The translations under genes and the position numbers were made by a program. Below the pieces are notes generated by a model. The model was not told the DNA's origin. It did not search any database and was given only the letters and a program-made list of their open reading frames with translations. A stretch of 64,000 nucleotides of DNA, taken from contig JAUZTB010000068.1 in the NCBI GenBank assembly GCA_034780895.1, positions 18,646,565 through 18,710,564 on the forward strand, given 5' to 3'. Below are positions 2,543 through 59,900 of the stretch, one piece after another (the stretch's first letter is position 1; each line of letters begins with the position of its first letter). The stretch is from Rhynchobatus australiae. Its lineage: Eukaryota.

Positions 2543-2903
2543 GAGAAACAAAGGACTGCTGATGCTGGAATCTAGAAGNNNNNNNNNNNNNNNNNNNNNN
2601 NNNNNNNNNNNNNNNNNNNNNNNNNNNNNNNNNNNNNNNNNNNNNNNNNNNNNNNNNNNNNNNNNNNNNNNNNNNNNNNNNNNNNNNNNNNNNNNNNNNN
2701 NNNNNNNNNNNNNNNNNNNNNNNNNNNNNNNNNNNNNNNNNNNNNNNNNNNNNNNNNNNNNNNNNNNNNNNNNNNNNNNNNNNNNNNNNNNNNNNNNNNN
2801 NNNNNNNNNNNNNNNNNNNNNNNNNNNNNNNNNNNNNNNNNNNNNNNNNNNNNNNNNNNNTGGCCTACTGAGTTCCTCCAGCATCATCATGTTTTTTTTA
2901 AAC
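2543..2903. mobile_element. Penelope-type short element, inverted arms, centre in gap
   Basis: Arms GACTGCTGATGCTGGAATCT and CTGAGTTCCTCCAGC; TSD CAGGTTAGCTG at 2532-2542 and 2904-2914. Confidence 0.7.
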
Positions 2904-3641
2904 CAGGTTAGCTGTTGCCTGCAAATTCCATGACAGCTCTGGTAAAATAACCAGCAACTTTTGAAGCAAACACAAAATAAATTTAATGAGTGTTACTTAC
3001 ATTTAAAGAATTCTGCTCCTTTGGGATCAGATCAGTGGGCAGAATGTTAGAGACCAGAAGGTGGTGCAGGTTGGAAGAGCAGGTACTGATGCTTCTTATT
3101 TTCTGGTCAGTGTTGTTATTAGAAGTTGATTTAGATCATGACAATTATTGAGAATGGGAAAATGGAAAAAACAAAAAGATAACCCTTCATTTTCACTATT
3201 TCCTGTCTCACCTTTCATGTTCTGTGCACGTGCTTCCACAGTTCTTTCCTCACTGGAGCTATTCCCTAGATAGAGACGAGGCTTTCTTCACTACCTGTGT
3301 CAGGGCACTCTATGACATTGTTCAAGTCATCTCTCTTAATGTTCTTTCCTATATTTGGTACTTCCAACTTCTTTAGTGAAGTATGACCCTGAAGGTATTC
3401 CTACATGGAAGAGACATCCTGCAAACTTACATAACATGTGCTATGATAACACACCTCATTATCTTTTTCCACTGGAAACAGCTTTCCTCATACTCTCCTC
3501 CCCAGTTTTCTCCACCCTCACCTTCAACAAGAGGAAAGAACACATGACAACCTTTGACTCCTAAATTATGACCATCTGGCCAATTGCATTCCACATTTCT
3601 GCCATTCCCCAACGATCCAGGATGAAATTCTCATATTAATC

Positions 3642-3772
3642 CAGGTGAAGAGTCTTGACTCAAAACCTTGTCTGTCCATTTCCCTTCACAGATACTGCCT
3701 GACCCACTGGGATCTTCCTGCAGCTCATCTTTGCTCCAGGTTCCAGTATTTGCAGTCTCTTGTGTCTCCATC
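3642..3772 (+). mobile_element. Penelope-type ~130-bp monomer with degenerate hammerhead-like head
   Basis: CAGGTGAAGAGTCTTGACTCAAAAC...TGCAGTCTCTTGTGTCTCC; 12/14 TSD at 3628-3641 and 3773-3786. Confidence 0.65.
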
Positions 3773-6142
3773 TTCTCTTATTAACCTACTAGCACCAGGC
3801 CCAAAGTCACTCTTGGCCCTTCTTTCTCCCTCACTGTCCCCCCACCCCCGTCCTATCCAAGTCTATATAATCAATGAGACTCACTTTCTGCTCCTTTAAT
3901 CCCATTTGCATGAACTTGCTTTGTTTACAGTTCTGTCCGCAGTTACTGCTTTTTTTTCCCCTTATTCAAGTTAGGTGGGACCATTCCTGCCTGGTTCAAT
4001 TTTTACCCATTTAATGGATGAGGGACACCTATTTTCTAGCCTGAGAATCACCAGCAGTAGTTTCTCTTCCCACAGTACAATCATTACGTTCTGGATCACC
4101 CAGAGATGTGCCCTCAGCCATCTCATGTTTATATTTACACCCTGCACCTTGGTGACATCATTCAAATCAGAGTGATAATTTCCANNNNNNNNNNNNNNNN
4201 NNNNNNNNNNNNNNNNNNNNNNNNNNNNNNNNNNNNNNNNNNNNNNNNNNNNNNNNNNNNNNNNNNNNNNNNNNNNNNNNNNNNNNNNNNNNNNNNNNNN
4301 NNNNNNNNNNNNNNNNNNNNNNNNNNNNNNNNNNNNNNNNNNNNNNNNNNNNNNNNNNNNNNNNNNNNNNNNNNNNNNNNNNNNNNNNNNNNNNNNNNNN
4401 NNNNNNNNNNNNNNNNNNNNNNNNNNNNNNNNNNNNNNNNNNNNNNNNNNNNNNNNNNNNNNNNNNNNNNNNNNNNNNNNNNNNNNNNNNNNNNNNTCCT
4501 TTTAAGAAGATCCTTAAAATCTACCCTTAGACCAAGCTTTTGGTGATCTGCACCAATACCTCCTTACATGGGTCTGTGCAAATTTTTGTTTGATAATACT
4601 ATTTTTTAACTAAGTTGGAATGTTTAGCTATGCTAAAACTGTTAATATAAATATACTTTTTACTCTTATACACTCTTATATAATATAAATAAGAGGATTT
4701 TGTAGGATAAATAACATTTTTGTTAAGAGGTTCAGAAAACACATGCAAAGGTTTAATCTTAACCTTCACTCCTCTGGTTAGGTTAAACATTTTTGAATTG
4801 TATTCTTGCCACGTAAATGGCTTTTCTGGTTAGGTAGCCTCTTGCCTTGATGTGTGTGCCTCAGTCTTCTGTACCTTCCTTTTTTGGCATCAACTTCAAC
4901 AGTGGCTCAACTGCCTCCTGATCAAAGTAAAGTGCCCTCAGGCTGCCTCACACAGTGCTGGATTAAACACTTCTACTGTAGCTTTAAAATATCTCATTTT
5001 CACCAATTTTGTTTAAAAATTAAGCTGCGGAAGTATGGCAGAATAATTGTTGATAAATTACAGGGGTTCAAAGTATTAATCTTTGTTTAGACTGCTGTAT
5101 TTCCTCCGTGGTAATCCCAAACAACAAAGAGGGAACATCTACTGTCAACATCTATGGGCTTGCTGCCAAGAGTCTCTGATTGTATCCACTCAAATGTCTC
5201 AATGCACCCACAAAATGGGTTACTGAAATTTGACTTCAAGTTGTGATAATGTGTTGAGTTCCCCAGCACGGATCTGAGGACATCAGCCTCATAATGCCCA
5301 GCAGTGAGGCACACAGGCTACTATTTTTCAATGTCAATTCCAGTGTTATCTTATAATTCATACAACTGTTAGATTCCGTGCCAAGGCTGATAAATTGTGA
5401 AGTGGCCTTTCATTTAATGATGACTTTGTTTGATAGTAATTCTGTCAAAATCTAAGAAAAACTTTTCAATGCATTAAGTTTAAAGGCTCTAAGATCATTA
5501 AATCTAAAGTGGAGTCAGGTCTGGCAACAGTCAAAGCCACTGCACTTTTGTCTTCATAGCTGAAGTTCCTTATTTAAATTTGTCCACAAAACATTAAGAA
5601 GGATGAGTCACAGATTCAAAACATCATTCAGAATCTTTGAATTCCTTGTAAAATCACCACCAGAAAAAAAGATCAATGATAAACCTTTCCTCTTGATTTA
5701 AGATTTCTTTCTTCAGCGACTGGCCATATAGTTTAATTTCAAAACATAAACCTTTGTCTCAGAAAATAATGCAAGTCCTGCCTAAGGTCACTCCTGTCAC
5801 TTGTGCCTTGCAGGTGGCATCGGGTGGTTGATAAGTAAAATGCTAAATGCAGAATGCAGAATACACCCTCTCATGCTAATAGCCACAACATTTTTGCAGT
5901 TGCCCAAGTCGAGTTTCTGGCCAATGGTGATCCAGATATACAGCACGGAAACAGGTCCTCTAGCCCACCAGGTCAGCATTGACCATCAATCACCCATCTT
6001 CATTACATTGAGTGTTGGGACTCTCCAGTCAAAATGTTACTGACTATCAATGGTTGGTGGTTAACCTCTCTCATTTGAACCATCCTTAGCAGTTACATGG
6101 CAAAATGTTGCAAAATATTTATCAATCCAAGTTTGTATGTTG

Positions 6143-6293
6143 GAGACACAAGAGACTACAGATGCTGGAATCTGGTGCAACAAACAAAATGCTGGAGGAA
6201 CTCAGCAGGTCAGGCAGCATCTGTGGAAGAAAATGGACAGTCGATGTTTCAGGTCAAGACCCTTCATTATGTCCAGACATTTTGTTTGTTGCT
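6143..6293 (-). mobile_element. Penelope-type short element with short inverted arm
   Basis: GAGACACAAGAGACTACAGATGCTGGAATCTGG...TCGATGTTTCAGGTCAAGACCCTTCAT; 12/15 TSD at 6128-6142 and 6294-6308. Confidence 0.7.
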
Positions 6294-9159
6294 CAAGACT
6301 GTATGCTGTCCAGGTTATGTTATATGCAGACAGAGATTAATTCATTCTCTGAGGAATTACAAATGGAATTGATTCTGTAATCATCAGCAAACAGCTCCCA
6401 CTTTTCAACCAATAAGAATTAATAACTGAACCAAAAATGAGAACCAAAGATTCACTAAAATANNNNNNNNNNNNNNNNNNNNNNNNNNNNNNNNNNNNNN
6501 NNNNNNNNNNNNNNNNNNNNNNNNNNNNNNNNNNNNNNNNNNNNNNNNNNNNNNNNNNNNNNNNNNNNNNNNNNNNNNNNNNNNNNNNNNNNNNNNNNNN
6601 NNNNNNNNNNNNNNNNNNNNNNNNNNNNNNNNNNNNNNNNNNNNNNNNNNNNNNNNNNNNNNNNNNNNNNNNNNNNNNNNNNNNNNNNNNNNNNNNNNNN
6701 NNNNNNNNNNNNNNNNNNNNNNNNNNNNNNNNNNNNNNNNNNNNNNNNNNNNNNNNNNNNNNNNNNNNNNNNNNNNNNNNNNNNNNNNNNNNNNNNNNNN
6801 NNNNNNNNNNNNNNNNNNNNNNNNNNNNNNNNNNNNNNNNNNNNNNNNNNNNNNNNNNNNNNNNNNNNNNNNNNNNNNNNNNNNNNNNNTTAGATAGCCA
6901 ATAACTCAGGGGATTCAAAATTACATTGGTTCACAAAAATACAACTGCCAAGCAAATAGCCCCAGAGGATGTTTGATATTGAACAGTATTAATAGTCTCT
7001 TTTCTGCAGAACTAATTGATCCTTTTTGACTCTTTGATCAATATGTGATTGCAGGAAACTACATTTGTCCAAACAGAAATCATGTGCGCTGCAGAGCAGA
7101 TAACAGTAATTGCTTTGCACTCAACAGATATCAGAACATTAACTATTAGTTTACTCCCTGAGAATAACTTTCATAAGTAATGTATAGAAACTTGGTTAGT
7201 CTATTCCTCCTCATACATAGGAGGTGTCCATTCAATCCATCGAGTTTATGCTGGCTTGCAGAGCAACCCCATTCCCCTCACAAATTCTCCCTGCAATCCA
7301 TGTGGAGTATTAAGACAGTTCTGATCTCTGTACTCTAGAAGGGATATTGAAGCAATGAACAGACTCAAAAAGATTTATTCAAATGAAACACCAATTGAGA
7401 GAAAGGTTGAATTGAGTGCAATTTTTTTTCTGGCAAAATTACTGCAAGGGTCGGAGCAGAACTGGGAAGTTAGGATTATGGAACAACATATTCTATCCTC
7501 CAAATGAACAGCAGTGACAAGTATTCTCAGTTCAATGCTTGTACCTTATTAAATTTAATGGGGAATTCAGGAATAAATTCTTTGCCCAGAGGGAGATTAG
7601 AATGTGGAACTTGCTACCACAGAATAGTTTATGCAGATAACACAGATGCATTCAAGAGAGAGACAAGCAACCACGTAAAAAGGGAAATAAATGGATGGGT
7701 ATGTTGGTGGGAATAGAAGCTTTGTAATACCTGTAATAAATGTACGTTGATGCCTTTCAAAACCAGGTTGGGTGCGAATTCTCTGCCTTCTTCAAAAATT
7801 GCTAGTTGTAAACAATATTAGCATTAAACATGCCATAATAGAGGTAAAATAATAAAATAAATGATGTAACATATAGATAACACATGCAATTTTTCCTTGT
7901 AATAGATGTTCTTAACACAATGCAACTATGATGGTTTGATAATATTAAGAGACAATAAAATCCCCAAAGATAGACTCCACATTATTCCCCTTGCTGAAAG
8001 AAAAGGGCTTTAGAACAAATTTAAGGACTCCTTGAAGCAACATCCAATGCAAATGGCATCATCCTGAAGGATAACTACAACAAGCTCAACAGGCTTTTCA
8101 CCATACAAGTGTAATGTGGCAGGTTCCTATTTATGTCTCTGAACATAATTGGATGAGATAATAAAATTCCTAAGAGTTCTTTACCCAGTTCTCCTTACCC
8201 AAATGCAAATTGTCATTGAAGACAAAGAATGGCAACATACATTTTTTTTTCTCTTATTAATTTCTCACCATTCGGTCTAGATACTTAAATTCATGTTACT
8301 GAATGATTCATGCATTCAACATCAAGTGTCTACCCCAGAAAAGTCCCTGAGGTGGCTGATGCAGAGAAGCTGAATTAACGTCATTACATATGGTGATTAA
8401 CAACACCAATTAGGACAGTTTGATTATTGGCTAATTCAGCTCTCAGAACCAATAAATCCCCTGGTATTTTTTCCAACATTAATCAGAATGTTTCATAATG
8501 ATTTTTAAAAATAATTCTGAAAATGAGACCTCACCCTTATTCTTTGTTTTTATTTATCATAGTGGCATTTTTACTCCCACGAAAACAACTAAATTTTACT
8601 TTTATTATATATAACTTGCTGATTTGTTGTATATGTTAGAAATATGCTTGTATCTACTGCATGAATTTGTAAAGATATAGATTCAAGCTTCAAGTTAAGA
8701 TGTTGGCACTTAATTGAGGCTGGTAGATCAATGCGGTAGGATGCTGATTCATAAACAGTCTTTCAGATAGGTTGTTAATTCAACCCTTCTACTTACACAA
8801 GTGCAAATTACAACTAAAAATCCATTTTTAAAGAGCTCTCCCAAGTGAAAAAAACTTTTAACTGGTCACCATCTACAACAGCCTCACTAGTCATAGTTTC
8901 AGGAGGAACCAGTGTTACAAACCAGCAACAGAAGAAGCACACCGAGACATGTATAAGTGTTAAAATCTTCTTTATTGATAACTACTTATGATAATAAGTA
9001 AAATAAAAGTAAAAATATTAGAATGTTAGAAGTAAAAATGTTAAACCCCGAACANNNNNNNNNNNNNNNNNNNNNNNNNNNNNNNNNNNNNNNNNNNNNN
9101 NNNNNNNNNNNNNNNNNNNNNNNNNNNNNNNNNNNNNNNNNNNNNNNNNNNNNNAGTCA

Positions 9160-11362: not shown

Positions 11363-11545
11363 ACAGCATCTTTGGGGGGGGAAAGAAATTGTTGATCTTT
11401 TGGGTCAAAAGCCTGAATCAATCCTGATCCAGGGTTTTGATCTGAAATAACATTAATTCCTTTCTCCCCACAGATACTGCTCAACCCACTGAATTCCTCC
11501 AGCAGACTATTTATTGCCCCAGATTCCAGCATCTGCAATCTCTTG
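11363..11545. mobile_element. Penelope-type fold-back element
   Basis: Inverted arms meet near 11421 (GGGTCAAAAGCCTGAATCA / TGATCCAGGGTTTTGATCTGAAA). Confidence 0.65.
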
Positions 11546-12174
11546 GGGCAAGAGAAGAGTCGGCTTCCTTCATGTTAAGAAGGGCAATGCCAGCACAAAG
11601 GCCCAAGTGACCTCTTCGAGTGCAACAAACCCATACTTTCAAATGCCTGGAGAAACCCACATTCCTGTTTATTTTGGTGAACATTCTGAAAAATGCAGGT
11701 ATTCACTTTGATAGGTGACATTTGGTAAAATCTTTTTACTTATTTATGTTAACAGTCCACATTCACCATGTGTGGAACCTGCCATTATCAGTCATTGCAC
11801 CATCTCATCTGTGCTGGTAAGAGAATACTCTTCACACAGTGTGTTTATCAAAACTTGGATTTTCAGTGTAGCAATACATTTTATACATCATGAACAAGTA
11901 CCCCAAGCCTTGTGATGCCTTAAGTTATAGAAAAAATTAACATGTTGTGTCTTAATGTTTAGATAATCTAATCACACAAATGTAGTTCCTAACATGAGAC
12001 AGGTGCCTTAAGATGCCTCACACATTACAGTGCATTTTGTGTAATCAGGCAAATCTTCAATTGTGTCAAAATTTTCAACCAAAAAAATCCCCCCTTCCTT
12101 TCATCTACATCAAATAGCTCCTTCAAATCCACTCTCAACATGTCCTCAGTCCACTTCCCTAATTTAAAATAAAA

Positions 12175-12310
12175 AAAAATGATGGAGACACTCAGCAGGT
12201 TAGGCAGCATCAATGGAAAGTGAAAAAAGAGTTAGTTTTAGGTTAAACCTTTGTCAGATCCTTTTAAGACTCTACGTTTTATGTCAGATTTCTGACATCT
12301 GTAATTTTCA
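12175..12310 (-). mobile_element. Degenerate Penelope-type short element
   Basis: CACTCAGCAGGTTAGGCAGCATC motif. Confidence 0.5.
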
Positions 12311-13049
12311 TTTATCCTTCTCTAATTTGTCTCAACTCCATGGGATCCACTTCTTGGTAAAAACCATTGGGTTGTTTATTATTGTGTATACTATGATTTT
12401 TTTTAGGTAGAAACCTAATTGGGTCATAGGGAAGAGAATCACCAAGATAGATTTAATGTGACATTTTTTGTTAGTTCTGAGAAACTTTCAAAATAAGAAA
12501 TAAATTCAGCAAGGAAATCGAAGTAATGACAAGGGCAAAGAATCAAGCTCAAAATATGACAGAGAATGAGAATATCATGTATTAGAAAAATCTTATCTGG
12601 TGTAGTACTGCCCTCTAATGGAAAAGTAGTATCAGTGGCTTTAGACATTGTGGAAGTGCAGAATTATTTAAACCTTTTTTGCTCTGCCCCATTTCAGTGA
12701 GGCTTTTCTCTTCTGGGCCCTACCCACCATTCTACATTGAAATTATAAATGCTGAATAATTCATTTTTATAATTGCTCCTGCTTCCAACTTTACCATATT
12801 CCATTCAGGAAGCCTGCTCCCTCACAGCTTCAGGCTTGGTATGCAGAGGCCCTGCATACACTCAAGTCAGTGTAAAAGATCACACTGCACTATTTAAAAG
12901 TAAAACACTAGATTTATTCACAGCTAGTATTTATCATCAATCAACTTTAATGAAAGACACATCACTGGTTATTATACATTGCTGCTTTTGAGAACATGCC
13001 ATGACCAAAATGGTTGGTGTGCTTCCCAGTACATTTCTCATATTTTCTC

Positions 13050-13719: not shown

Positions 13720-13815
13720 TTCTGGTAAAAGGTTATTAACCTGAAACATAACTCTTTTTTTCTTCTCACAGGTGCTGCCTGACCTACTGAGCATTTTCAA
13801 CATTTTCTGTTTTTG
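13720..13815 (+). mobile_element. Degenerate Penelope-type short element
   Basis: ACCTGAAACATAAC...GCTGCCTGACCTACTGAGCATTTTC. Confidence 0.55.
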
Positions 13816-14379
13816 GATTGGTGTTGAATTACCATTAAATCTTTCCTTCACCAAGCAGCATAAGACACTGACCCTCAAAACTGGATAGAACAGTAGAGGA
13901 CTCGCAGGTGTTATTAATGGAGCTATATATATATGATTTCTAACATGGCCCTTGAACTAGATTTTGCATTTACTAATTGGACTCAGGTGGTCTGTTCTGC
14001 TATCATCAGAATGGTTGGTGAATAGACGTTACAAATAAACTCAGTTAAGTAGCAACTGCTTGTGCTTAAAGAAAATTCATATGGTCCCCACTACATAATC
14101 AATATTGCCATGACTTGAATGAGATAAACTACAGGTTATATTTTCTACTAATTGCATTGAAAAACTAGCTTAATATATGATTCAATGGGAATGCAAAATA
14201 TACATGGTTGTGCAAAAGATGGAAATAATTATAGCTAAAACCAAAAAAAAGAAAAAAACCAAAAAAAAGAAAAAGGGAGATAATTGGAGAAACCATCCAT
14301 TTCCTGAAAGGTCCATTCACAAACATGGAAGCTAGCCTAAAGATTGCAAAACACACAAACTTGCAAGTGCTCTGCAACT

Positions 14380-16379: not shown

Positions 16380-16720
16380 AGAGGAGGCAGCCATTTTGGC
16401 CCATCGAGTCAATGGCAACTTGTGTAAGAATCCCATTCCCTGACTGGTTTTCCCTGTACCTTATTCTCTCCACAGTTCCATCAACTCCACCCTCCCCATT
16501 GTATCCACTACCACCCCCCTCCCCACCAAGTTAGATTTTATTTCTGACCTATATATTAGGGGCAAATTGCAAAGGCCAATTAACCCGCAATCCTTGGAAC
16601 ATGGGGGAAACTAGAGCACCCAGAGGAAACACATGCAGTCACAGGGAGAATGTATAAATTCTCCACGGACAGCACCGGACCCCAGGATTGAACCCGGGTG
16701 GCTGAAGTTGCGGCCATGTG
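16380..16720 (-). mobile_element. V-SINE, reverse orientation
   Basis: GGGGGAAACTAGAGCACCCAGAGGAAACACATGCAGTCACAGGGAGAA...GGATTGAACCCGGG is the reverse complement of head plus V domain. Confidence 0.7.
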
Positions 16721-18014: not shown

Positions 18015-18369
18015 TTTAATGGGCTGGGGTATCTTTTATCAAGAAAAATAAGGTACAAGCCTGTGGGAGTCTACATATGCAGATTGTGGAATCAGCCTAA
18101 TTCAGATGATACTATGCATATACTCAGTGGGTGCACACTCACTACTGAGTTAGTGGTAGTCAGTTTGGCACCCATTCCAATGACAAACACAAAAATCAAG
18201 GCTGAAACTCTAGTTCAGTACTGCTATAATGTCAGAGGTCTCAAGTGTTTTTCAAAAAAATTACTGCTAGGAGTTTGCTTAATATCTGCTCATTGGCAGA
18301 TTGGTATGCGTGTACCTTGCTCTGCACCAGTTATTATATTGCTGGATTGTGGAAATGAGAAAAGAACTA

Positions 18370-18470
18370 ACAAAAGTTCTTGGACCTGAAACGCTAAGAT
18401 GCTACCTGACATTCTGAGAATTTCCAGCATTTTCTGCTTTTATTTGGATTTCCAGCATCTGCAGTTTTTT
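18370..18470 (+). mobile_element. Degenerate Penelope-type short element
   Basis: GGACCTGAAACGCTAA...TTTCCAGCATCTGCAG. Confidence 0.55.
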
Positions 18471-18989
18471 TTTCTCATTTTCATTTGCTGGTGTGCTGTT
18501 TTGATATGCGTACCTTCTGGGGTATTGTGAAAGTATTTTGGAAAATTGTTTGGGAAGCCCTGGAGTGAGAAACCACATGGGAATCCAGTCTACCAACATG
18601 CAAGATTTACTCCCCCAAACTGTGCATGAACCCATTTCTAACCACATTAAACAAAAGGCCCTGAAGCAACAGGATTATGAATTCCTCGACAGGAAATTAT
18701 GCTCAAAATCATGAAGGACAACTTTACTTGACTATCACAGAGGTAGCACTAACAGAATATTGCATGACAACTCAATAGGGCAAGAGCAACATTCATTTTC
18801 TTTCCATTCCTCTCTTCAGATTGAAGTAGCCCTATCATAGCAAAGTGACTGAGAAAGCCATACTTAAGATGTAGAGCTGGGGGTAGTTTGATGAGGCAAC
18901 AATCCACTTTTGGTGAGATGCACAATGCAACAATGGTGGCATTTGGTACTGATATTATTGTCACTTGTACCTGGATACAAGGCTCCCTG

Positions 18990-19082
18990 TAATAAAAGCA
19001 GAAAATGCTGGAAAGCACTCAGGTCAGATTGCATCTTACAGGAAAAGATAACATTATAGGTCAAGGACTTTACAACAGAACG
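18990..19082 (-). mobile_element. Degenerate Penelope-type short element
   Basis: AAAAGCAGAAAATGCTGGAAAGCACTCAGGTCAG. Confidence 0.5.
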
Positions 19083-24769: not shown

Positions 24770-25310
24770 CTTCTTTGTAAAACTGTTGCTAATAATTCAC
24801 ACACAGCAAGCTCCCAATAACAACTTGATAATGACCTAGCCAATTCAATTCAATTGACTGAGGGACTGGTAACAGCCAGCATAACTCCCTTGCTGATTCC
24901 TGATAAAGGGTCTCGGCTCGAAATGTCAGCTGTTAATTTTCCTCCATGGATGCTGCCTGATCTGCTGAGTTCCTCCAGCACTTTTTGTGTTTTGCTCCAG
25001 ATTCCAGAATCTGCAGAATTTCTTGTAATTCCCTCGCTGTTCTCCTCTGTGATCCACTGACAAAGCCGTAGTTTAATGTCTCACCCGAGAGATGACGCCT
25101 CTGGAAAAGAGTNNNNNNNNNNNNNNNNNNNNNNNNNNNNNNNNNNNNNNNNNNNNNNNNNNNNNNNNNNNNNNNNNNNNNNNNNNNNNNNNNNNNNNNN
25201 NNNNNNNNNNNNAGATGACGCCTCTGGAAAAGAGTGCTCCCTCAGTATGGTAATGCCCAGATTTTTAGGCAGGTTTCTGGAAAAGGGCTTGAACCTATAC
25301 CTCTGACTTA
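24770..25310 (-). mobile_element. Deu-domain SINE, reverse orientation, split by a Penelope-type insertion
   Basis: CACACAGCAAGCTCCCAATAACA...GTTTAATGTCTCACCCGAGAGATGACGCCTC...GTGCTCCCTCAGTA. Confidence 0.55.
24896..25025 (+). mobile_element. Penelope-type ~130-bp monomer inserted in a Deu-SINE
   Basis: CTGATAAAGGGTCTCGGCTCGAAATGTC head; 12/14 TSD at 24882-24895 and 25026-25039. Confidence 0.72.
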
Positions 25311-26881: not shown

Positions 26882-26983
26882 TCATGATGGTGGTGAAGCT
26901 TGAGCTTTTCTCATTGACCGCAGAGCCTTCTCTCGGAGATGCTTTTCTAGATCATCTAGGTTTTCTTCTTCGCTTTCTGATTC
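26882..26983 (-). CDS. SRRM1: SRRM1 last coding exon (ESESEEENLDDLEKHLREKALRSMRKAQASPPS*)
   Basis: TGCAG|GAA...TCA TGA, 102 nt including stop. Confidence 0.96.
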   Translation of the reverse strand, partial: ESESEEENLDDLEKHLREKALRSMRKAQASPPS

Positions 26984-47900: not shown

Positions 47901-50900
47901 GACACAAGCACAAGTACTGCTAAGAACAGCAACAGTGTTAGGATATGCTCTATTAATCTTGAATGGGATCAACCTGTGGTGAATTAAGTAACAAAGATAG
48001 GGGTTTAAACTAACTGAAGGATTAAGAAAAGAATAAATTTAAAAACAAAAGTCAACTCTGCTCTGCAACCTCATGTGAGTTAAAGTAACCTGANNNNNNN
48101 NNNNNNNNNNNNNNNNNNNNATGGTTAACCCTCAGATTTAATCCTTTGCGCAAGGTGACATGAAGGAACAATAAAAGTTAAACTGGAAGTATTTCATCTA
48201 AATATGCAAATGTACTCAATAAAACAGATGAGTTAAGACCACAGGTTTTGACCTAAACAGAGAACTGGTTGCAGAGTGGCTAGGGCTAGACTGAACTTTA
48301 AGAAGTTATCAAGGAGGGCTAATGGGGGTTAATATGGAAGTTTACATGAAATTTAGCAGAGTGCCAGATGGCTAACTGATCGGAAAAGTTTAGGATCATG
48401 GAATCCAAGGGAAAAAGGCAAACTGGATAAAAAAATGGCTCCATGGCAAAAAGTAATGATCAATATGTCTTTCAGTATCCAAAAGGTTGTTTGCAGTGAT
48501 GTTCCATGAGCTCAAGAGCTACATCACATAATGGATGGTTGAAGACTTGAATGTATGGTTCATGATTAAGAAGTTTGAGTTCAATGACTAGTTCTGAACT
48601 CTTCACTTATATCAGATCTCAATGCAGACAGGGTATTGTATCCCCTTCAATAAAGGAAGCTTAAATAAAAAACAAGGTAAACCTTGTTGAAGTTGCTTCT
48701 GGCGCAGGTGATTCTTTTTTTTCTTTAAGTGAGAGATCTGGCTCAGGTGAGAGTTGCTCTGGCTTCTTGACTGTAGATACTGGTGAAGCACTTCTACTCC
48801 CACTTCTGGTCCTGCGACGAGGAGACCTAGACGGAGAACGCTTTCTCTCCCTTCTTGCTGGTGATCGCCTCCTAGGTGATGGAGATCTTGACTTCCGTCT
48901 GTAAGAATTAACACACTCTTAAAATCCAGCAATATTTGCCACAAAAACAACTGGTAAAATGCTTCTGGTAATGAAAACTCAGTAATTGTTGTTCCTGACT
49001 AGGTTAAAAAAAAAGATGCTACACCATCTTAAAAGCCAATGTTTAAAAGACTTTCAATTCACTAGTTAATGATTCAATAATTTTCATGATTCTTTTAAAG
49101 GGATCAACAAGTCTGAACATTCACTAAACCTGTTGGCAATAACTTAAGATCCCTTGTGATACAACTTTCGTAAAGAAAGTTCAGAGTCCAGATACTACAA
49201 TACTGAAGCAATTTGGTACTAACCGTGGCATTTCATAAATGAACCTTTGAAATGGCGCTGAATAGCATTTTACATGCCCAGTATGGAAACACATAACTAC
49301 ATATAAATAAAAAGTTGCTGCAAACCTGTAATTTTTTTTTAAAAAGAGAGCATGCTGGAAACACTCAATATAACAGGATGCATCCATACTGGAAACAGAA
49401 AAGATAACTGTCAAAAATTACAGGAATTACTGGAAACATTCAGCATCTGTGGGAAGAGAAATAGAGGACTGAGACCCTTCATTGGTTCTGCTAAAGGGTC
49501 TCAGACCTGAAACACTAACTTTGTTTCTCTTTCCACAGATACTGCCTGGCCTGCTACGTGTTCTAACATTTCCTGGTTTTATTTCAGATTTCTGGCATCT
49601 GATTTTTTTTACATTTAAGGTGACAGCTCAGGTTTGGGCTCTGTCAAAACTAGGAGATTTACTGCTGAGCAGCATTTAAAACAGAATTGAAAAAGAACTG
49701 GGAATGAAAAGGGAAATAAACACTCAATCCTTGCTATATCTGCTGACTTGTTGTCCATGGACCTGCATACTTATAAGGTCAGCCCCAGTTCCCATCTCAA
49801 TTTTTTTTCAAATGAATCTGTAAACATGTAAACATTTTCTGTACAATAGGGAGTTCAGTTTTCTAGCCACTTGTGTCAAGTGACTCACTGCAAGAATAGA
49901 GAACAGTCTCAGTTTACACAGCTGCACCTTATGATTTCAAGGCCAATTATGTTTCAAAGCACCTATACGTTCAATTAAATTAGTATTGCTAGCTAATATT
50001 TCCTTTTAGTACTGAAGTGTTTTAAAGTGTTTATTAATGCATGTTGATGCTTTCAGAACATTATGTGGCACATTTATATTTATTATACATATTACTATAT
50101 TATGTACAGGATACAAATGAAAGGGCCTTAATGGCATCCACAAATTTTGTCATCTGTGAGAACTTTGTGCCCTTATCCCATGTGGATAACAAGAATTTAA
50201 ATTTTTTTTCAAAATTTTATCTACAGCATGGTAACAGGCCCTTCCGGCCCAACGAGTCCACATCGCCCATTTTTTAAACCCCAAATTAACCTACCCGTAC
50301 ATCTTTGTAATTTAGTGTAGATACATGAGTAAAGAAAGAGCATGACTTACAAAATATTAAAGCACAAGACAGGAATGATTAAATCACAAGAGAGGATAGC
50401 ATTAGGTAAAGGAAATACCATGAGATAAATAAAATATCTTTTCAAAACTATTAAAATTTTACCATTTTAAAAAGATTAAGCTATTTCCCAAAAAAATGCT
50501 AAAAACTTCATGACTGTTGCAAAATTTTCAGGAATAAAAATGCATAATATTTATAGCAAGTGGCAGCAACATACATTTACAGATCAAATTTGGAGTTTTT
50601 TTTAATATACACAACACTGTCCAGTACTTAAATTAACCAAAATTTGGTTACATAAACAATATCAACTTTGAGGTGGTGAGAAGATGGGGAGAATTCATCA
50701 TCACATCATAGTAAATGCAATTAAGTAGCACAGTATAAACTTGATAAAAACTGAAGGCTGCAGCTGACACTATGTGCAAAACTGCCTACACATCACGCCT
50801 TTGGGAAAACACGAACTTAACAAAGAAGGAACAGCGGTGAAAACATTATAGAAATTATAAACTGTCGCCACTATAGCCACTACATTGAACTGTAACCTAA

Positions 50901-53900
50901 CATGCACTGATTCTTAATCACCTCTTTGGACTTCTGGAACGGTCCCTCTTTTCTCTGTTTTCTTTGTCTTCTTTATCCTTTTTTTCCTTCTCTTCATCTT
51001 GCTTCTTCATGGTAGCCAACTTTTCCTGTTCAATCTGTAATAACAAATTTGTAAAGTTGTGAAAAACCAACAACATGTTCCATAATAAAAATTTCATAAT
51101 GTTATTTCATCTATGCCCAAGAATTCCTAAAATTAAAGAAGAAATACTACCTATTTACTAAACATTTAAAACTGAAATGATTCCGAACATTCTGGATCAA
51201 TCTTGCAGTTAAGACTGCAATCCACTGCACGTGAAAGTGTGATCCGAAATCAAGGGCTTAAAGGAACCAAATTCTTTACTCATTCTCCCCCCACCATACA
51301 AAATCAAAAGTGCAATTCACATATGAACGATGTACTACAATAGCTCCAATTGTTGCTTTAGCTTGTGATCCAACCATAAAATTTGATTTAGTCAAATGCC
51401 AACCTGCCATATATTTCAGAAATTTAAGCAGAGCACCGTCATAAAAATTAAAGTAGCACAGAAGATTGCCGAGATGGAAAATTAAAACCCAACCCAAATT
51501 TGTCCTAATTACAGCCATCCAAACCCATCTCCAGCCTGAGGACTTGTAAATTGTTTGCCACCCAATCCATGTTGGACTGCCAAACTCCACCTACAATTAC
51601 TGGGTCCGTAAGAAACCCATGGATGTTGTTTGTACTAGAACTATTGCACCAAGCACCCAACCAACTATTGTTCATTCCAACAGATTTATCGGCATGTACC
51701 ATTTTGGCCAAGGGGCCAGTTTCCATGCTACGATTATACAACCAAAGCTTTGTACGTGGTTTTAATGCATCAAGCCAAGCTTACACCAGGTGCCTATTCA
51801 ACGTGGCACATGTCTAATTTTTGCAATTGAAGCCAAGAGGTCACTGCCCAGGTGATAGGAGAGAGGAGGGTTGCTGCTCCAGACTCCAGCAGTTTATATC
51901 GAGGCAGCCCCAGCTATTCATGTCCCCTGTCCTCCCAGCTCAGGACCACTTCCCTGTCCTCTCCTAGCCTAGCAACACATTGAGCTCGCTGGCCTGTATA
52001 CACACCACCAGCTAGCAATCTGTTTACACTAACATTCCACATTGATTAATGTTTGAAGATGGCTTATCACCACTAGGACACAAGCCTCTGAATGTGCAAG
52101 GTTGATATTCACCCCAAGTCCACGTCAATCTGCGCCACAGCTTCTGACTGCTGCTCATTGCTTGTAAACTCTAACAAATTGCCACTTCCAGCCCCACAGT
52201 GCACGGTTTACCCTAACAATCTAGTGATAGACATGTCAGTGCCATACCAAGTTGAGATATATGAAACTTCTTGATCCAATGGGAGAAACCAGGGGTGGAT
52301 GGTCAATGAGAATGCTGATTCAATTTGAATTTTGTTTTTTTAAAACCCATTTACTTTTTTTAAATATACAGAAAGAATCAAGATCTTACAATTAACTCAA
52401 ATAGCAGGATTTTGTTTTTTTTTAGATAATCTGCTTATCCCAATTCAATCCCAAACCAAGGACTTGAAATGATATTGAAAGCCAATACAAATAGTCACAT
52501 CCCATTAGACTCCAGTCAGGTGGCCGTGTTCTAAAGCAGCAGATGTTCTCTCATGACAAGAATGATACACAAACATCAACAAAACAAGATACACCAAGAA
52601 ACAAGAAATGGAAAGGGCCTCATCACTACTCATGTTAAACTATACCCAAATCAAGTACATTTAGAGTTGTATTTTATCACAAAAGCCACATAGTACTGCT
52701 TTTATCCACAAGTGCGAAGGATAAATCCTGTCACAAAGGTTCTAAGCAAATGATCTCAACCTAGAATATCAATTCTATCAAATTCACAGAAGCATACAAA
52801 TACGTTACCTGTCGCTGTTTAATCTCTTCTTTCTTCTGTTCCAGAAAAGCAGAAGGGATTCCTGCAATGTTTTCTTGTGCACTCAACAGCAATGGCCACA
52901 ACTCGCCCATGAACATTCTTGCATTCTTTCCATTCAAGAACCCGGTCAAGTTAATCTGCATCAGCTTTGCATCTGGATTCTGCAACAGACACAAGATGAA
53001 GGCAGGAAGGTTATATGGAAAAATCCAAAAGCATTTTACCCTAATACTTCCAATCTACCTCAATATTCTAAAGACAAAATTGACAGTGGCAATACTTTAG
53101 ATGATGGTAAATTACATTAATAGCTTTTCTATCTATGCTGTGCATCATCAATGCGAATGCCCTGAACTAACAGCCTATATAAACTGGCTGAATATCAGCT
53201 TCGTCTTAAGATTTCTTTCAATATGAACAATACATTTAAATCCCATTTACGAGGCCAGACTGCCTCTCACTATTTCTGACAATAGCCAATGGGCATTCTG
53301 GAGTTTTATGAATGGATACTGCACATAGGTTGCCAGAGCAACGAGGTCCAGTAAAAAAAACACACAAACGTGTCAGAACACCACAAAGCATGTACAGAGT
53401 CCTGAGGTCTTCAATTTCTTCTGGTCGACTCCTGAACCCAAAGTTCCAAGTCCCCTGTAGAGAAAGATGTTCCCTTGGGTTGCTTCCGACTCCCTACTGC
53501 AACTCAATCACCTTGAGTATAATGTTATATCATTTATCTAAATTGTAAGAGACGAACAAGCAATAATGAGTAAACAGCCACATAAAAGAAAAATGAACAG
53601 TTTATATTCAACTTTGGCTTAATCTGCTTAAATAAACTTGCCTTCATGCTCCGTGAAAGAGCTGTCCCTACCTCTCCAGATCTGAGTTTTATATTAAATA
53701 TCTAATAACATGCAAATTCCTAAACTAGTTACAATGTACTAATTTAATGAACTATATAAAATATACACACTAGCATTCCACTGATTGTAATCCAAAATCT
53801 TGGCTAGTGCATACCTAAACCATTGTCTAGTATATAGCTACCAATGGTACTATATAATAAGATTCAAATTATGATTTTTAATCTACTCTAGATAGCACAT

Positions 53901-56900
53901 TTAGTTTATTTGACCATGGTTATAGCAATAAAGATAACTAAATCCATCGAACTACTTAGTAGGTACTGGGATACAAAGGCAGCCAGATCTGCTAATTTGG
54001 GTCTATTCCGGATTAAAGATTTTTTATATTTTAGAAATATTCCAACATTAATATTGGTTATTTGTTCAAAACTTAGCACTGGTATACAGAATGCTGGTAT
54101 ACAACATTCTTTAAAATATTGTCAAAGAATCTTTAAATTAGAGATAAGATCCATGTTTATTTGGTTGCAATCAAATATGAACCTACTGGAAGTTTGGGAA
54201 GGCTCTCAGAGTTGCAAGTAATATCATACACACTGTTACTACCAAGATTACAGACTAAAACCAACATCTAAACTATTTCTTATTTCCTTGCTTGCAAACT
54301 GCTTTCATCCTACTGCAATTATGGGTATGTGGGGACAGGAAAATGGGGCAGGGCACAGGCAGAATGGTGTGGGGCTGCAAACTTTCCACATACACCATTA
54401 TTGCCACTCGTTATTAAGATGTACACTTCAAGCACAGCGAAAAGGACAATTTTACTTTAGTTTCCCCCAAGATGAACATCTTGCTTCCATGTAACATTCT
54501 ACCTAGCAATATAGATGCTCTTTTGTTGTACATTTATCAAATGAAGAAGCCTGAACATTTCTACTTGGACAAACTAGATCAGACACATTTAAATGCTGAG
54601 GATACATTTCAGTCACGTGAAAATAGAATCTCAGGGCTACACAAATTCCATATATACCACTTGTAGTTCGACATCAAACATGGCTTTCCTTCTATGTAAT
54701 TTCTAAGCATTTTTCCCCAAAATGAAAGACATTCTCATTATCCCTTGNNNNNNNNNNNNNNNNNNNNNNNNNNNNNNNNNNNNNNNNNNNNNNNNNNNNN
54801 NNNNNNNNNNNNNNNNNNNNNNNNNNNNNNNNNNNNNNNNNNNNNNNNNNNNNNNNNNNNNNNNNNNNNNNNNNNNNNNNNNNNNNNNNNNNNNNNNNNN
54901 NNNNNNNNNNNNNNNNNNNNNNNNNNNNNNNNNNNNNNNNNNNNNNNNNNNNNNNNNNNNNCTCATCTAATCTGGCTACTGTTTTGCTTTCCACTTGTTA
55001 CTTCTGAGCAGTGTAAAGTTTTGTCCGAGTGCTCTTCATTGAATGGCATGAGGATTTTCGTCTGGTCACTTTACACAACTCACCTCCAAACACACACTGC
55101 ATCATCAAGGGAGGAGGGTCAGAGCGACATTGGAATTCACTTTGCTGTGACCTAACAAGGTGATGGTGCTATACTTCAGACGGAATAACATCCATTTTGG
55201 TTCAGGCCTTTTAAATCATAAATCACACGATCATTAGAAAAATGCTGTCAAAGGCTCTTATTATACAATAAAACAAGTAAGAACACATACAAGATGGATT
55301 TTCTTTTTGTTACCTGAGGGCTAACTGATGGGCCATTCAATATCTTCAACTGTTTCACAAAAGTATATTAAGCACTCATAAGCGTGAGCACTAAACTTTG
55401 TATATACAAATTCATTCAGCGTTCAAAAATATAATTCAACATTCAATTTTTAGCTTCAATTCAGAGAAAAACAAAAGTCAGATAATAATATCAATCTAAA
55501 CTAGCTGAATATATCTTCTAATATCTGGAAACTACAGACCAGTTAACCTGGCAATCAAATTCCATTTTAGAATCCAAATTGATTTCCAAGTATAATTAAA
55601 ATACAGAGTATAGAATAAAAATCTCAATGTACCCTTGTGAAAATAGCTAAAAGTGCTGAATGGCCCACAAAGAATCCTACCATATTTAAAGCTATCCTTG
55701 CAGCTTTTTAAACCATGTTTTTACTGTCAACATTAACTGTGTAGAAAACAAGCAGACCTGACACTTTACAAAATTTTCTTTCACCAAAAGTCCAGGTGAA
55801 AAACCACATCACAATAACTTTTTAAATACTCTTTCGTGTTTCCAATTATTACCTTCTCTTCAAGATGGTTGAAGATGAACTCAATAACAACATCATCTTC
55901 GAACCCAAGCATTTCGGTCACTCTCTGTGTAATCCATGGCTTGATCACCTCCAGGTTCACTTTATTCATATCCACCTGAAATAATTTTTTTTAAGAAAGA
56001 TTAACATTACAACTGAATTATTAGTCTAATGCCAATAAGTGATTAGAATCTATTATTGGCAACAGAACTGTTGATCACTTGTACAAAATGATAAAGCCAG
56101 TGTGGGTTGTAAAGGATAAGTACATGACTTGTTTATGGGCTTTCAGAAGGTATGCAGATTGATGGAATATAAATGACTTAAAAGAGAGGATATGGAATTG
56201 GAGAGACAATCTGCTTCTAGAAATAAGGAACTTGCTAGGAGGTAGCAGATAGTAAAGATAATTAGCAGGATGTGATCACCCTGAAATTGGTATTATGATC
56301 ACTGATTTTCATTCCACTTGGATAAATTGCTTTCTCTTCCTTTGCCCAAGTTTGACAATGTCATGAAGTGGTACAGCAAACATCTCANNNNNNNNNNNNN
56401 NNNNNNNNNNNNNNNNNNNNNNNNNNNNNNNNNNNNNNNNNNNNNNNNNNNNNNNNNNNNNNNNNNNNNNNNNNNNNNNNNNNNNNNAGGCAGCATCCTG
56501 GTAAATCTCCTCTGCACCCTCTCTGAAGCTTCCACATCCTTCCTATAATGAGGCGACCAGAACTGAACACAATACTTCAAGTGTGGTCTGACCAGAGTTC
56601 TATAGAGCTGCAACATCATCTCGCGACTCTTGAACTCTGTTGTTGCTTTACCTTATACTACCTCAATGCACTGTTGTAATTAATTGATCTGTATGCACAA
56701 GGCAAGTTTTTCACTGTAGCTCGGTATATATGACAATAATAAACCAATTAACTGAGCAATGGATTGGGGTGGAGAAGAGAGAATCCATTTGAATGGTTTA
56801 GAGGTGGAGATGAACAGTGGATCAGGCGAAATATCAGGGAAAATGGAGACACTAGCGACTGCGGATGCTGGAATCTGGAGCAACAAACATTTCCGGTCGA

Positions 56901-59900
56901 AACCCTGCATCAGAGGTGGAAAACTGATGCAGGGTTTTGACCCGAAATGTCGACAATTCCTCTCCTCCCACGGATGCTGCTCGACCCGCTGAGTTCCTCC
57001 AGCAGACTGTTGCTCTGAATGTCAGGGGAAACGTCAACTCTTCATCTATCCCATCAATTCCTTTAAAGTAAGAGGAGCTGCTAATTTATGCAGTCACGGA
57101 CAGAATCACTTATGTTTCTTGAATGCAAAGTGTCAAATGCATCTTGGCTGGGGATGTGACATGGGAGAGCGGGAGTGGGGAAGTGAATTCTTCCACAGAG
57201 CTGAATCACAAATCCAATGCTGTTCATTGAGACAGATCTCATCTCTAACAAGGGAGCCCCTGAGGCAGGGGACGTGGAGCCTGGTGATTTAGAGCAAATC
57301 TTACCCCAATAAAATCCCCATTCACAATTCAATAACATTGAGCTCTTGCTTCATTCACAGAGCCTTCGGGGAAAAGGTACCTCGTGAAAAGTATGAAATG
57401 CACCACAGCCAAAAGGAACAAAACATTCAGTCTTACAAAGGGGAAAACAACCAGCCAGATAACACGAGAGCAGTTCTATTGCACTGAAGTCCTCCGCTGA
57501 ATCTGGTTCAGTAACACAGCAAAACACAGTCGCACATCAATGGACTCAGGACACTCGAGGATGTGGAGGCTTTGGAGAGGGTGCCGAAGAGGGTACAGGA
57601 TGCTGCCTGGATTAGAGGGCATGAGCTATCACAAGAGGTTGGACAAACATGGGTGGTTTTCTCTGGAGTGGCGGAGGCTGGGGTGAGACCCATTAGAAGT
57701 ATGAGGGGCATAGACAGAGTAGACAGCCGGTATCTTTTTCCCAGGGTCAAAATGCCTAATACTACAGGGCATGCATCTATGGTGAAAGGGGATAAGTTCA
57801 AAGGAGATGCATGGGTAAGTTTTTTTCACACGGAGAGTGGTGGGTGCCTGGAATGCGTTGCCAGGGGTGGTGGTGGAGGCAAATATGATAGAGGTATTCA
57901 AGAGGCTCTTAGACAGGCACATGAATGTACAAGGAATGGAGGGATATGGACGTTGTGTAGGCAGAAGGGATTAGTTTGGGCAGGCGTTTAATTAGTTCGG
58001 CACAACATTGTGGGCCGAAGGGCCTGTTCCTCTGCTTTATGTTCTATGTTCTACATCAGAGGTGAATGAAACTGGAGGACGTAGGTTTAGGGTGAGGAGA
58101 AAGAGATTCAGAGAGGGAATGAGGGAGACCTTCTTTACCCAGAGAGTGGTGAGTACCTGGAATGTGCTGCCTGAGACAGTGGTTGAAGCTGGGCCATTAA
58201 TAGCACTTAAGAAGTGTTGAATGAGAACTTGAATCACTTAGGCACAGAGGGCTATGGACCAAGTGCTGGGTTACAGGGTTAATATGGAAGGTGCCCACTG
58301 GTCGGCATGAATGAGTTGGGCTGAATGGCCTGTCTCCAAGCTGTATGATTCTATTGACTCCATGAAGAGATTACAGGAAGGAAAGTAACAAATGGAATTT
58401 TTTACAAAATCTTTTTTGTTCAATTATTTATACGGAATCACAATCAACATTTACAAACATTCATATTTTCATTTCCCTTATCACAATAGGAGGCAGGCAC
58501 GGTAGTGTAGCGGTTAGTGTAATGCTATTACTGTGCCAGAGACCCAGGTTCAATTCCAGCCGCTGTCTGTGAGGAGTTTGTACGTTCTCCCTGTGTCTGC
58601 GTGGGTTTCCTCCGGGTGCTCTGGTTTCCTCCCACATTCCAAAGATGTATGGGTTAGTAAGTTAACATCGGTGTAATTGGGTGGCGCAGGCTCGTTGGGC
58701 CTGTTACCTGCTGTATAATTAAAGTTTTAAAGTTTCTTTATTTGGACATTCAGAGGTTGTAAAAACATGCAAAATATCGCACAAGCTCTTTTTTCACTAT
58801 GAGTCTTTCACCCATTGTCTGCCTTCCCTGCCTCTTAATCCAGGTTACCTCTGCTAAGTGCTTTGGAGCTATATATAGAAAAGTTGGAATGCATGATTAA
58901 TGTTACGTGCACTCCATCAACTGAGGTAATGATGCATGTGTGGCTAGGCTTCACATCAGCCATTAATATGCTGTTATCCTGTAAATATCTTTGGACAAGC
59001 CTTTCATCTTGGCTGATTTATACAGTACTAACATCAATAACTTTTGCCTGCTTTCTACTGAGGCAAGTTTCTGGACAGTTTCTAATTAGTTGGGTTCATT
59101 GCACAAATAGAGACATTTCTTCATTTTCCTTTTTTACCAGTAGACTGATAACTGACCATCTATCAAAATTCTGATAATGTGTGCCATCAAAACAGAGGTA
59201 AAGACCAGCTTCAATCAGTCACAAGGTTTTTGCATATGCTCCAGTCTCAAGCAGTCATTCACCTCGGTCTCTGTTCCACATGGTGGGACAGATAGGTTGT
59301 TGCCCAATGGGAGGAAATTGTCAGAGTGCATCAGCTACCTTTTCCTCTGCGTTCAATGTGCAATTAATATTTAAGAGACTGTAGTGAGATGAAAATTAAT
59401 CTGGGGTCAAGTGTGTGATTCTAATCCAATTTGTGCTACTTGTCTGCAGACAGGACAAAAAGGATTAATGGATGAGCAGAAATGAGTTAGCTATAGACAT
59501 ACATGAGATGCCCAGCATAGAATGAAGGGATGCCAACTGCCATGGTATAGTACACTGCAAATTCCTGACATGTAGGAAGCATTCATTCACCTGTGTTGAA
59601 GTGAAATTCTGGATTTGTAAAAGTCTGTTCCAAACTTCTACTATTCTTTGCAACAGAAGTTTCCCAGCTTCACTCCCTAAAGATGATTCCAATATTTAAA
59701 CTGTGCCCAGTAATCTCAGATTCCTGAATCAGTGAAATGGTTTCTATCAACCTTTATCAGCTCCCTTCAAATAAAATCCATAGACATTCCCTCACCAATA
59801 TTTCAGTCACCTTTTCAAAAAATTAAAATTAGGTTCTTGAAAAATGACAGACAATGCAAAGCCTTGCTGGCTCTTTCTGAAAAGCTTAACTTAATTTTGA

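Follow-up and report, generated by a model that had tools for sequence, protein, structure and literature searches.

The window, by which we mean the whole stretch of 64,000 nucleotides from Rhynchobatus australiae analyzed here, carries the gene SRRM1 and a dispersed repeat of ~130 bp. A protein search with the PWI exon as query returned SRRM1 as the name, and one with an RS-rich exon gave no match. Five of the 14 repeat sites are intronic to SRRM1 and nine lie downstream of the gene. The features are as follows, C3 denoting the first core position of a head.

26900..61634, minus strand: host gene SRRM1, with the PWI exon at ~52.8-53.0 kb, RS/P-rich exons and the last coding exon at ~26.9 kb.
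2532..2914: inverted locus with tail arm 2542-2576 (minus) and body arm 2861-2909 (plus), the head not visible because an N run interrupts the locus; target duplication 11/11 (2532-2542 and 2904-2914).
3628..3784, plus strand: solo copy with head, body and tail at 3640-3772, C3 at 3642, A9 type, three core changes; duplication 11/12 (3628-3639 and 3773-3784).
6141..6302, minus strand: full copy, C3 at 6270, A9 type, 90% identity to the subfamily majority, with a short piece in inverted orientation behind its head; the duplication is weak, 12/15 (null fraction 0.17).
11364..11549: head-to-head inverted pair, C3 at 11421 (minus) and 11424 (plus), both C9, tail on the plus arm; an N run cuts the left arm.
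12154..12328: older-type arm without tail (minus, C3 at 12257) and tail piece 12278-12312 (plus); duplication 11/12 (12154-12165 and 12317-12328).
13720..13825, plus strand: older-type solo copy, C3 at 13722, without tail and without clear duplication.
18365..18474, plus strand: older-type copy that keeps its tail, with C3 at 18367 and a deletion behind the head.
18986..19078, minus strand: older-type copy, C3 at 19078, four core changes.
24882..25039, plus strand: solo copy at 24896-25026, C3 at 24900, A9 type, single core change G8 to A; duplication 12/14 (24882-24895 and 25026-25039).
32937..33071: headless inverted pair of the older type in an SRRM1 intron, tail on the plus arm only.
40983..41526: headless fragment 40983-41031 (plus) abutting a long inverted locus with heads on the minus (C3 at 41069) and plus strand (C3 at 41404, then body and tail), both C9; the 325-bp spacer consists of upstream parent sequence and itself forms an inverted repeat (64.6%, E 9e-24).
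45444..45784: inverted locus, the junction of its arms lying ~4 nt beyond the predicted cleavage site, with a tail only on the right arm, internal N run with duplicated overlap; duplication 14/14 (45444-45457 and 45771-45784).
49317..49611: older-type headless arm 49317-49412 (minus) beside a head-to-head pair, 49407-49487 (minus) and 49486-49611 (plus, C3 at 49488), tail on the plus arm only.
56830..57031: best-preserved C9 locus, tail 56844-56889 (minus), heads with C3 at 56913 (minus) and 56924 (plus) separated by a 10-nt spacer, plus-strand body reaching 57020; duplication 12/14 (56830-56843 and 57018-57031).

The original prediction had listed at least 14 copies of a shared ~130-bp unit, and all 14 coordinates were recovered by nhmmer. 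The first pass gave 23 matches, and iteration of the model raised this to 25 fragments (E<=0.05), amounting to 2,068 of 60,870 non-N bases or 3.4% of the window, while the reversed window, used as a control, gave no repeat match with the same model. Copy 18990, which was held out of the model, was still recovered at 8e-8; most other matches are members of the training set, and the E-values of most matches are not independent because these copies served in model training. The unit is ordered as a hammerhead-like head, a body and an optional ~40-bp tail. Repeat sequence was found at each listed start, but 2543, 32944, 40980, 45458 and 49345 proved to be fragments showing no head, and at 40980 and 49345 the heads sit in adjacent arms. 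Many of the loci are inverted pairs, of which no mention had been made. Rfam miRNA and lncRNA matches on the repeat hairpins were rejected as chance. Hammerhead pattern scans gave 0 matches in viral contigs and 0 in prokaryote genomes; the metagenome scans gave 0 and then 17 matches, all of them chance 19-mers, since the profile match was limited to ~20-35 nt around the pattern.

The 14 heads share one layout, namely CUGANGA-H, stem II, GAAA, two palindromic bases, UH and stem I, which confirms the head layout originally claimed and agrees position by position with the minimal Penelope hammerhead consensus of PMC4209133, given there as CUGANGAH-G..C-GAAA-N-N-U-H with an extra base after A9 and palindromic positions 15.2/16.2. 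The core base was matched at C3 in 12 of the 14 heads, U4 in 12, G5 in 11, A6 in 9, G8 in 7, A9 in 7, G12 in 10, A13 in 13, A14 in 14, A15.1 in 14 and U16.1 in 10. The majority of all 14 carries the CUGANGA box, followed by the extra A in 13/14 heads. Positions 15.2/16.2 mostly read TG, CA or CG, as expected of a CG in decay, with C at 15.2 making up 36-40% of depth in four sequencing runs, and no head has G at 17. As had been stated, every copy bears core substitutions: no head is intact (0/14), there were no strict descriptor matches, and a window scan allowing one core mismatch plus stems returned none. Judged by their sequences, today's ribozyme copies are predicted to be catalytically dead. 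The younger-subfamily majority passes the descriptor at one mismatch, and 0/40,000 dinucleotide shuffles do so. Stem II is paired in 89% of cells across the 14 heads and stem I in 45%; stem I is 4 bp long in the subfamily majority, where pair probabilities are 0.86-0.95, and its upstream strand is also present in runs of other genomes. The computed fold of the head forms both stems with pair probabilities of 0.82-0.96. The pairing predicted for stem II was upheld, but GGGUC/GACCC is better drawn as 4 bp and a 4-nt loop. With only 14 decayed heads, the covariation values observed for the stems were reached by 113-446 of 500 shuffles (115 of 500 for the covariation score) and so do not exceed the shuffled background, and RNAalifold predicted no consensus pairs on the heads; the lone subfamily-level swap concerns the pair closing stem I, which is U-A in four and C-G in three.

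This lack of a covariation signal would suit a SINE, either tRNA-derived or LINE-tailed, or the 3' end of a LINE, with a chance resemblance to a hammerhead, as would the short, abundant copies with long and variable target site duplications (TSDs) and what we take to be CR1-like LINE remnants in the same window. We nevertheless consider such an origin very improbable. ARAGORN found no tRNA gene, the majority string has no A-box match on either strand and B-box-like words only at a single mismatch, and none of the 40,000 shuffles matched the hammerhead descriptor. Inverted arms and a one-sided tail, described below, are not known to be features of SINEs.

Opposite-strand arms were noticed at at least eight loci, including head-to-head pairs, and they are 5'-truncated; head-to-head arms form computed hairpins of -30 to -45 kcal/mol. 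At all six inverted loci where both 3' ends can be seen, the tail is on one arm only. Target duplications of 11-14 bp were accepted at 6 of 16 boundary pairs (six loci, null fraction <=0.02), and of the ten pairs left nine were not significant and one, a seventh candidate, was dropped as a T-run. Inverted arms, one-sided tail and long duplications provide three independent supports for the Penelope type, all of them overlooked in the original prediction. PMC3846280 describes head-to-head inverted pseudo-LTRs (pLTRs) with 8-10-bp TSDs and an optional 31-bp tail, PMC8557442 a 30-40-bp tail at one end, and PMC11167929 identifies the tail as the stretch between two internal reverse transcriptase (RT) starts, the dominant template being uncleaved RNA. 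Thus, layout and insertion marks combined together support the minimal type I hammerhead of Penelope pLTR type that had been proposed. A MITE-like DNA transposon, its palindromes stemming from terminal inverted repeats and its hammerhead look being incidental, would also place inverted pairs inside one duplication, as found at many loci. This is the least probable of the origins weighed here: one-armed solo copies own duplications (3628-3784, 24882-25039), which largely refutes it, duplication length varies from 11 to 14 bp, the arms are unequal with a tail on one side only, and the hammerhead match goes beyond chance, as the shuffles indicate.

Upstream of two heads (40983..41526) we found longer parent sequence, whereas 12 of the 14 heads have sharp 5' ends with no parent sequence beyond ~6 nt upstream of the box. 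An upstream consensus that is rich in pyrimidines and closes with the stem I strand is shared by 723-1060 contigs in three of four other runs; run depth at the repeat is not copy number, and the stretch measured includes a second repeat. No RT or GIY-YIG domain was detected in the 148 open stretches of the window of at least 70 aa, nor in 26 database peptides containing the repeat; repeat translations used as protein queries gave 0 matches in one search and 26 in another, all 26 of them unnamed, and all ten that were looked up were Logan-only. No linked RT/GIY-YIG ORF was thus found, which counts against a Penelope origin and makes membership an inference; the inserts themselves would have no room for such an ORF. 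The repeat had been called a non-autonomous Penelope derivative; the Penelope type is supported, but non-autonomy has a rival reading. A longer parent exists, and from it the copies may derive as pLTR-only products.

The latter reading is the one we favor: on the evidence of sequence, the repeats are probably pLTR-only insertions of a longer Penelope-like retrotransposon, with predicted-dead ribozymes. The RT of the parent would begin at the tail end or ~40 nt inside, which would make the tail optional, and would then copy body and head off uncleaved RNA, usually halting on reaching the hammerhead's 5' edge. An inverted second arm would often be added, and the duplication of 11-14 bp would result from a staggered endonuclease cut. 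Cleavage after GUC/GUU would have been open to the parental motif only as a same-sense dimer or with the help of a protein. In a transcript of an inverted locus the sense and antisense heads would pair into a long predicted hairpin, so that no hammerhead would form. This explanation is weakened by G8 and A9, each present in only 7/14 heads, by covariation no higher than in shuffles and by the ten of 16 boundary pairs at which no duplication was accepted.

Within the same Penelope origin, the ~130-bp unit could instead be a self-standing non-autonomous master, SINE- or retrozyme-like and copied in trans by Penelope enzymes, which we regard as possible though rather unlikely. The sharp 5' ends of 12/14 heads fit such a dedicated short master equally well, the inserts between TSDs leave no space for an ORF, and there are distinct subfamilies, one without core A9. 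In rotifers pLTR sequences suffice for mobilization in trans according to PMC3846280, and for vertebrates non-autonomous retrozymes derived from pLTRs have been proposed. On the other hand, the C9 type occurs with more than 160 bp of upstream parent (41027-41526), the upstream end is common to hundreds of contigs, the window lacks the head-to-tail tandems that define animal retrozymes, and an autonomous parent is already expected to give variable inverted structures.

The site written as A or C in the original prediction is core A9, which reads A in seven, C in six and T in one of the 14 heads; the C9 heads come from three loci, and their subfamily was also found in other genomes. At least three source lineages probably contributed, an older one with U-A closing stem I, a younger A9 lineage and a younger C9 lineage without core A9; linkage of C9 to the body was 3/3 versus 0/3 (Fisher p 0.10, not significant alone). 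Because two subfamilies are mixed, the pair that closes stem I comes out as a C-A mismatch in the majority of all copies. The younger-subfamily majority has C9 and hence fails the strict descriptor, and with C in place of core A9 a C9-bearing consensus is not a canonical ribozyme. The expectation of an active ancestral consensus may therefore hold at best for the A9 lineages, and not for the C9 subfamily, which is without the core base. In PMC4209133 even intact minimal hammerheads showed no activity as monomers and only weak activity as dimers. One abundant branch had probably already lost a key catalytic base when it spread. More tentatively, and with the balance somewhat against it, a Penelope source already reading CUGAUGCA, in which core position 9 is C or, read another way, the extra base lies between G8 and A9, may have spread widely in several related genomes, which would be natural proof that catalysis is dispensable for mobility in vivo, or would point to an undescribed active core. 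If so, 5' ends at the ribozyme edge and not at the cut site would mark run-off cDNAs whose priming took place within the 5' pLTR of an uncleaved RNA. Shark sequences or variants at position 9 may already figure among the dimer-cleaving variants of Lunse et al.

Penelope ends are already known to carry minimal hammerheads, and commonly do, which makes the basic finding a matter of routine annotation; the repeat kind has been known since 2014 and is probably new for this lineage. About 3% of the region likely consists of Penelope end-pieces that ORF-based annotation would miss. In one in vitro study catalytic mutants still insert, and a dense family with sister subfamilies keeping or lacking core A9 and with sharp 5' ends offers a natural comparison for the role of the ribozyme. 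What goes beyond the known kind and can be tested is the C9 subfamily, together with the sharpness of the 5' ends at the edge of the ribozyme.

Among known systems, the Rfam hammerhead families share their catalytic boxes with the repeat, but a scan of the window at E<=5 gave no match to any of them. Animal non-LTR retrozymes, reported in the single chondrichthyan sampled, are similarly non-coding, pLTR-related and of type I hammerhead (bioRxiv 10.64898/2026.07.22.740005); they are head-to-tail tandems with complete ribozymes, whereas the repeat is solo or inverted, with no head-to-tail tandem units or intact core in the window. EN+ Penelope-like elements carry an ORF, none of which was found with the repeat, and TSDs are 8-10 bp in those of Adineta (PMC3846280) versus 11-14 bp here; the elements described in PMC3846280, PMC8557442 and PMC11167929 share with it head-to-head inverted pLTRs, palindromic junctions, an optional 30-40-bp tail at one end, TSDs and strong 5' truncation. 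Compared with the minimal hammerheads in the available part of PMC4209133, stem II is short (4 bp) and C9, an abundant subfamily here, is absent from the variants given; the 56 aligned motifs of its Fig. S3 include no shark or ray and not the exact stems of the window repeat. Thousands of solo minimal hammerheads per genome were described in 2014, opposite-strand pairs included, and the likeness extends to CUGANGA with an extra base, GAAA, palindromic 15.2/16.2, no loop 3, a short stem I, the G10.1-C11.1 closing pair (here in the younger type), mostly solo dispersed copies, close opposite-strand pairs and several families per genome.

We recovered the repeat at all 14 sites named in the original prediction by means of an iterated profile. 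The first profile search of the window yielded 23 fragments and the iterated one 25 at E<=0.05, amounting to 2,068 of 60,870 non-N bases (3.4%), and the iterated profile gave 0 matches in the reversed window, which was searched as a control. Most matches are sequences used in training; the copy at 18990, which was kept out of the model, was recovered at 8e-8. The unit consists of a head (~38 nt), a body (~55 nt) and a tail (~41 nt). Six younger copies match their own majority at 80-90% identity and two older copies at 68%, while a third older copy reaches 81% over just 47 aligned bases. At the 56844 locus, contigs from four other sequencing runs stack on head, body and tail alike; summed depth was 0.4-3.4 million in the best body bin vs 0-13 over most of the unique flank (four runs), a measure which does not equal copy number, with 35,212-98,358 contigs aligned and a second repeat at 56500-56750 included. 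From depth we claim only that the repeat is highly abundant in four other organisms. The separate repeat fragment at 56500-56750, which has very high depth in all four runs, is likely a LINE 3' region.

The window is vertebrate genomic DNA of ~36% G+C with 22 N runs, in which the look of the repeat suggests a cartilaginous fish host, and carries a gene whose PWI exon (Pfam PF01480, E 4.5e-13) was named SRRM1 by vertebrate matches.

~61.6 kb down to 26.9 kb, minus strand, SRRM1 coding exons

Decayed LINE ORF2-like fragments, presumably resembling CR1, lie at 24009-24368 (minus), 57515-57988 (plus) and ~48.1-48.4 kb (plus), and have no Pfam RT match. Dispersed repeats of a second and third family (D5, D6, D16) at 21984-22189, 28861-29039, 58496-58701, 16603-16673, 50204-50268 and 1369-1432 are ~80% alike and possibly SINEs. 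Direct local duplications unrelated to the hammerhead repeat were noticed at 17391-17501/17904-18014 (111 nt, 94%), 14375-14430/14726-14781 (56 nt, 84%) and 2228-2276/3225-3273 (49 nt, 84%).

The heads share the layout of the metazoan Penelope minimal hammerhead consensus, CUGANGAH-G...C-GAAA-N-palindrome-NU-H (PMC4209133 supplement, in part). Among 14 registered heads the core is matched at C3 in 12, U4 in 12, G5 in 11, A6 in 9, G8 in 7, A9 in 7, G12 in 10, A13 in 13, A14 in 14, A15.1 in 14 and U16.1 in 10, and 13 of the 14 carry an extra A directly after position 9. As predicted, every copy has core substitutions (0/14 intact), and an Rfam scan of the window gave no hammerhead family match. 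We used a descriptor that requires both boxes, U16.1 and 4-bp stems I and II. The majority sequence of ten younger copies matched it with one core mismatch, as did 0 of 40,000 dinucleotide shuffles; it failed the strict descriptor, as did 100,000 of 100,000 shuffles. In the computed fold of the head stems I and II have pair probabilities of 0.82-0.96. The stem I 5' strand is also confirmed from outside: at 56924, 723-1060 contigs start in three of the four runs, and their loose-end consensus terminates in that strand. The expected stem covariation did not emerge in the 14 heads: observed scores were reached by 113-446 of 500 shuffles, and RNAalifold predicted no pair on the head alignment. Such a lack of signal is expected from only 14 neutrally decayed copies, and covariation stays unproven. 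Only one stem swap is visible, affecting the closing pair of stem I, which reads U-A in four heads and C-G in three. G8 is replaced by A in five heads (12257, 13722, 18367, 49488, 24900). With position 7 being C or T, this is consistent with an ancestral CG at positions 7-8 that decayed in the older type and not with a U3-A8 swap, the latter being disfavoured because C3 is retained.

The A/C variation described in the box was real, and we identified its site as core A9. C was found in six of nine younger heads, on both arms of three loci (11364, 41027, 56844), and A in the remaining three younger loci; the chance of an identical change at three of six loci is 0.0005-0.006, assuming per-site rates of 3-7%. 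C9 co-occurs with a body variant (3/3 vs 0/3, p 0.10). At 56930, A stays below 10% among contigs aligned there in four runs, since per-run C>A counts of 1, 2, 2 and 1 are all accounted for by rows 56696 and 57318, a test biased by a reference carrying C and a site only 7 nt from the homology start. Scored by eye, the 26 database peptides include five that run through the head in its C form and at least three in its A form. Judged from sequence, a C9 source lineage has spread, in which either catalysis would have been lost or the extra base would have shifted between G8 and A9. Neither PMC4209133 nor PMC3088659, in the portions examined, contains such a variant.

The original prediction described the unit and omitted its insertion structure. 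Opposite-strand arms form at least eight loci, and three head-to-head pairs are predicted to fold as hairpins on both strands, at -30 to -45 kcal/mol. Six inverted loci show both 3' ends (2539, 12172, 32944, 45458, 49407, 56844), and in all six the tail is present on one arm only; the count omits 6141, 11364 and 41027, which are truncated or interrupted. Older tails scored low in the tail comparison owing to a one-base insertion, and were read from other alignments instead. Testing 16 boundary pairs revealed target duplications of 11-14 bp at six (null fraction 0.0025-0.02); nine pairs had no significant duplication, and a seventh candidate was discarded as a T-run. Adineta Penelope elements likewise have head-to-head inverted pLTRs and an optional 31-bp tail, but their target duplications are 8-10 bp (PMC3846280, in part). 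PLEs generally carry a 30-40-bp tail on one side (PMC8557442, in part), which has been attributed to the RT starting at two internal sites (PMC11167929, in part). At 45458, stretches of 58 nt at 98% identity (45520-45577 and 45692-45749) flank an N run and probably represent overlapping assembly sequence; the true number of right arms here may therefore be one rather than two.

In twelve of 14 heads shared sequence extends no more than ~6 nt ahead of the box; beyond that point identity with the two long arms is 0.09-0.32. Heads 41069 and 41404 run on into a 325-bp spacer in which upstream sequence of the parent forms an inverted repeat (64.6%, E 9e-24); the spacer agrees with the upstream consensus from other-run contigs at 56924. 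Most copies hold the whole ribozyme and start elsewhere than the cut site, the exception being 45458, whose arms meet just past the predicted cut site. This fits uncleaved templates, which have been found in vitro (PMC11167929, in part). The sharp 5' edge is either the 5' end of a short master or the run-off end of parent RNA. We favour the copies being pLTR-only products of a longer Penelope parent; that the repeat is a dedicated non-autonomous master of Penelope origin seems less likely.

Two bases upstream of the CUGAUG box, the pyrimidine tract of the parent terminates in CAG (56924 upstream consensus; 41060-41100; 41380-41404), resembling a 3' splice site at the helix I 5' strand, where the D. 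virilis Penelope intron also ends (PMC4209133, in part); the 3640 copy begins exactly after the CAG position. Two further sense-strand motifs of this kind lie in the body of each copy (for example 6216-6240 minus, 41430-41456 plus) and at the body-tail junction; in several copies the first precedes an ATG with an open frame of ~25-30 codons. These motifs could mark where the parent's ORF starts, or act as cryptic splice acceptors within host introns.

A linked RT plus GIY-YIG ORF had been proposed as a check, but neither domain occurs among the window's 148 open stretches (70 aa or longer). A profile of seven repeat translations matched 26 peptides among 1.84 billion, all without an RT or GIY-YIG domain, and searching viral, prokaryote and metagenome collections by pattern yielded no genuine match. 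Penelope membership thus rests on ribozyme layout and insertion marks, and a Penelope origin is very probable. The copies would have been made by Penelope RT and endonuclease, and cleavage by the parent motif may have needed a dimer or the help of protein: by analogy, minimal hammerheads are inactive as monomers and weak as dimers (PMC4209133, in part), and protein-assisted cleavage is reported (PMC11167929, in part). Present copies are presumably inactive, with heads that may be sequestered within inverted loci.

In the openly accessible literature we found no account of this family as a hammerhead. What deserves testing is the C9 lineage together with the pile-up of 5' ends, our reading of which is tentative. 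A whale shark preprint describes an intronic Penelope-like expansion (10.1101/443036, in part), and a 2026 preprint tandem retrozymes in one chondrichthyan, linking retrozymes to pLTRs (10.64898/2026.07.22.740005, in part). The 56-motif alignment of PMC4209133, as far as available, holds no shark or ray; the same source reports thousands of minimal hammerhead motifs per genome, mainly solo with some opposite-strand pairs, and the repeat family very probably belongs to this already known kind of element, the Penelope minimal hammerhead.
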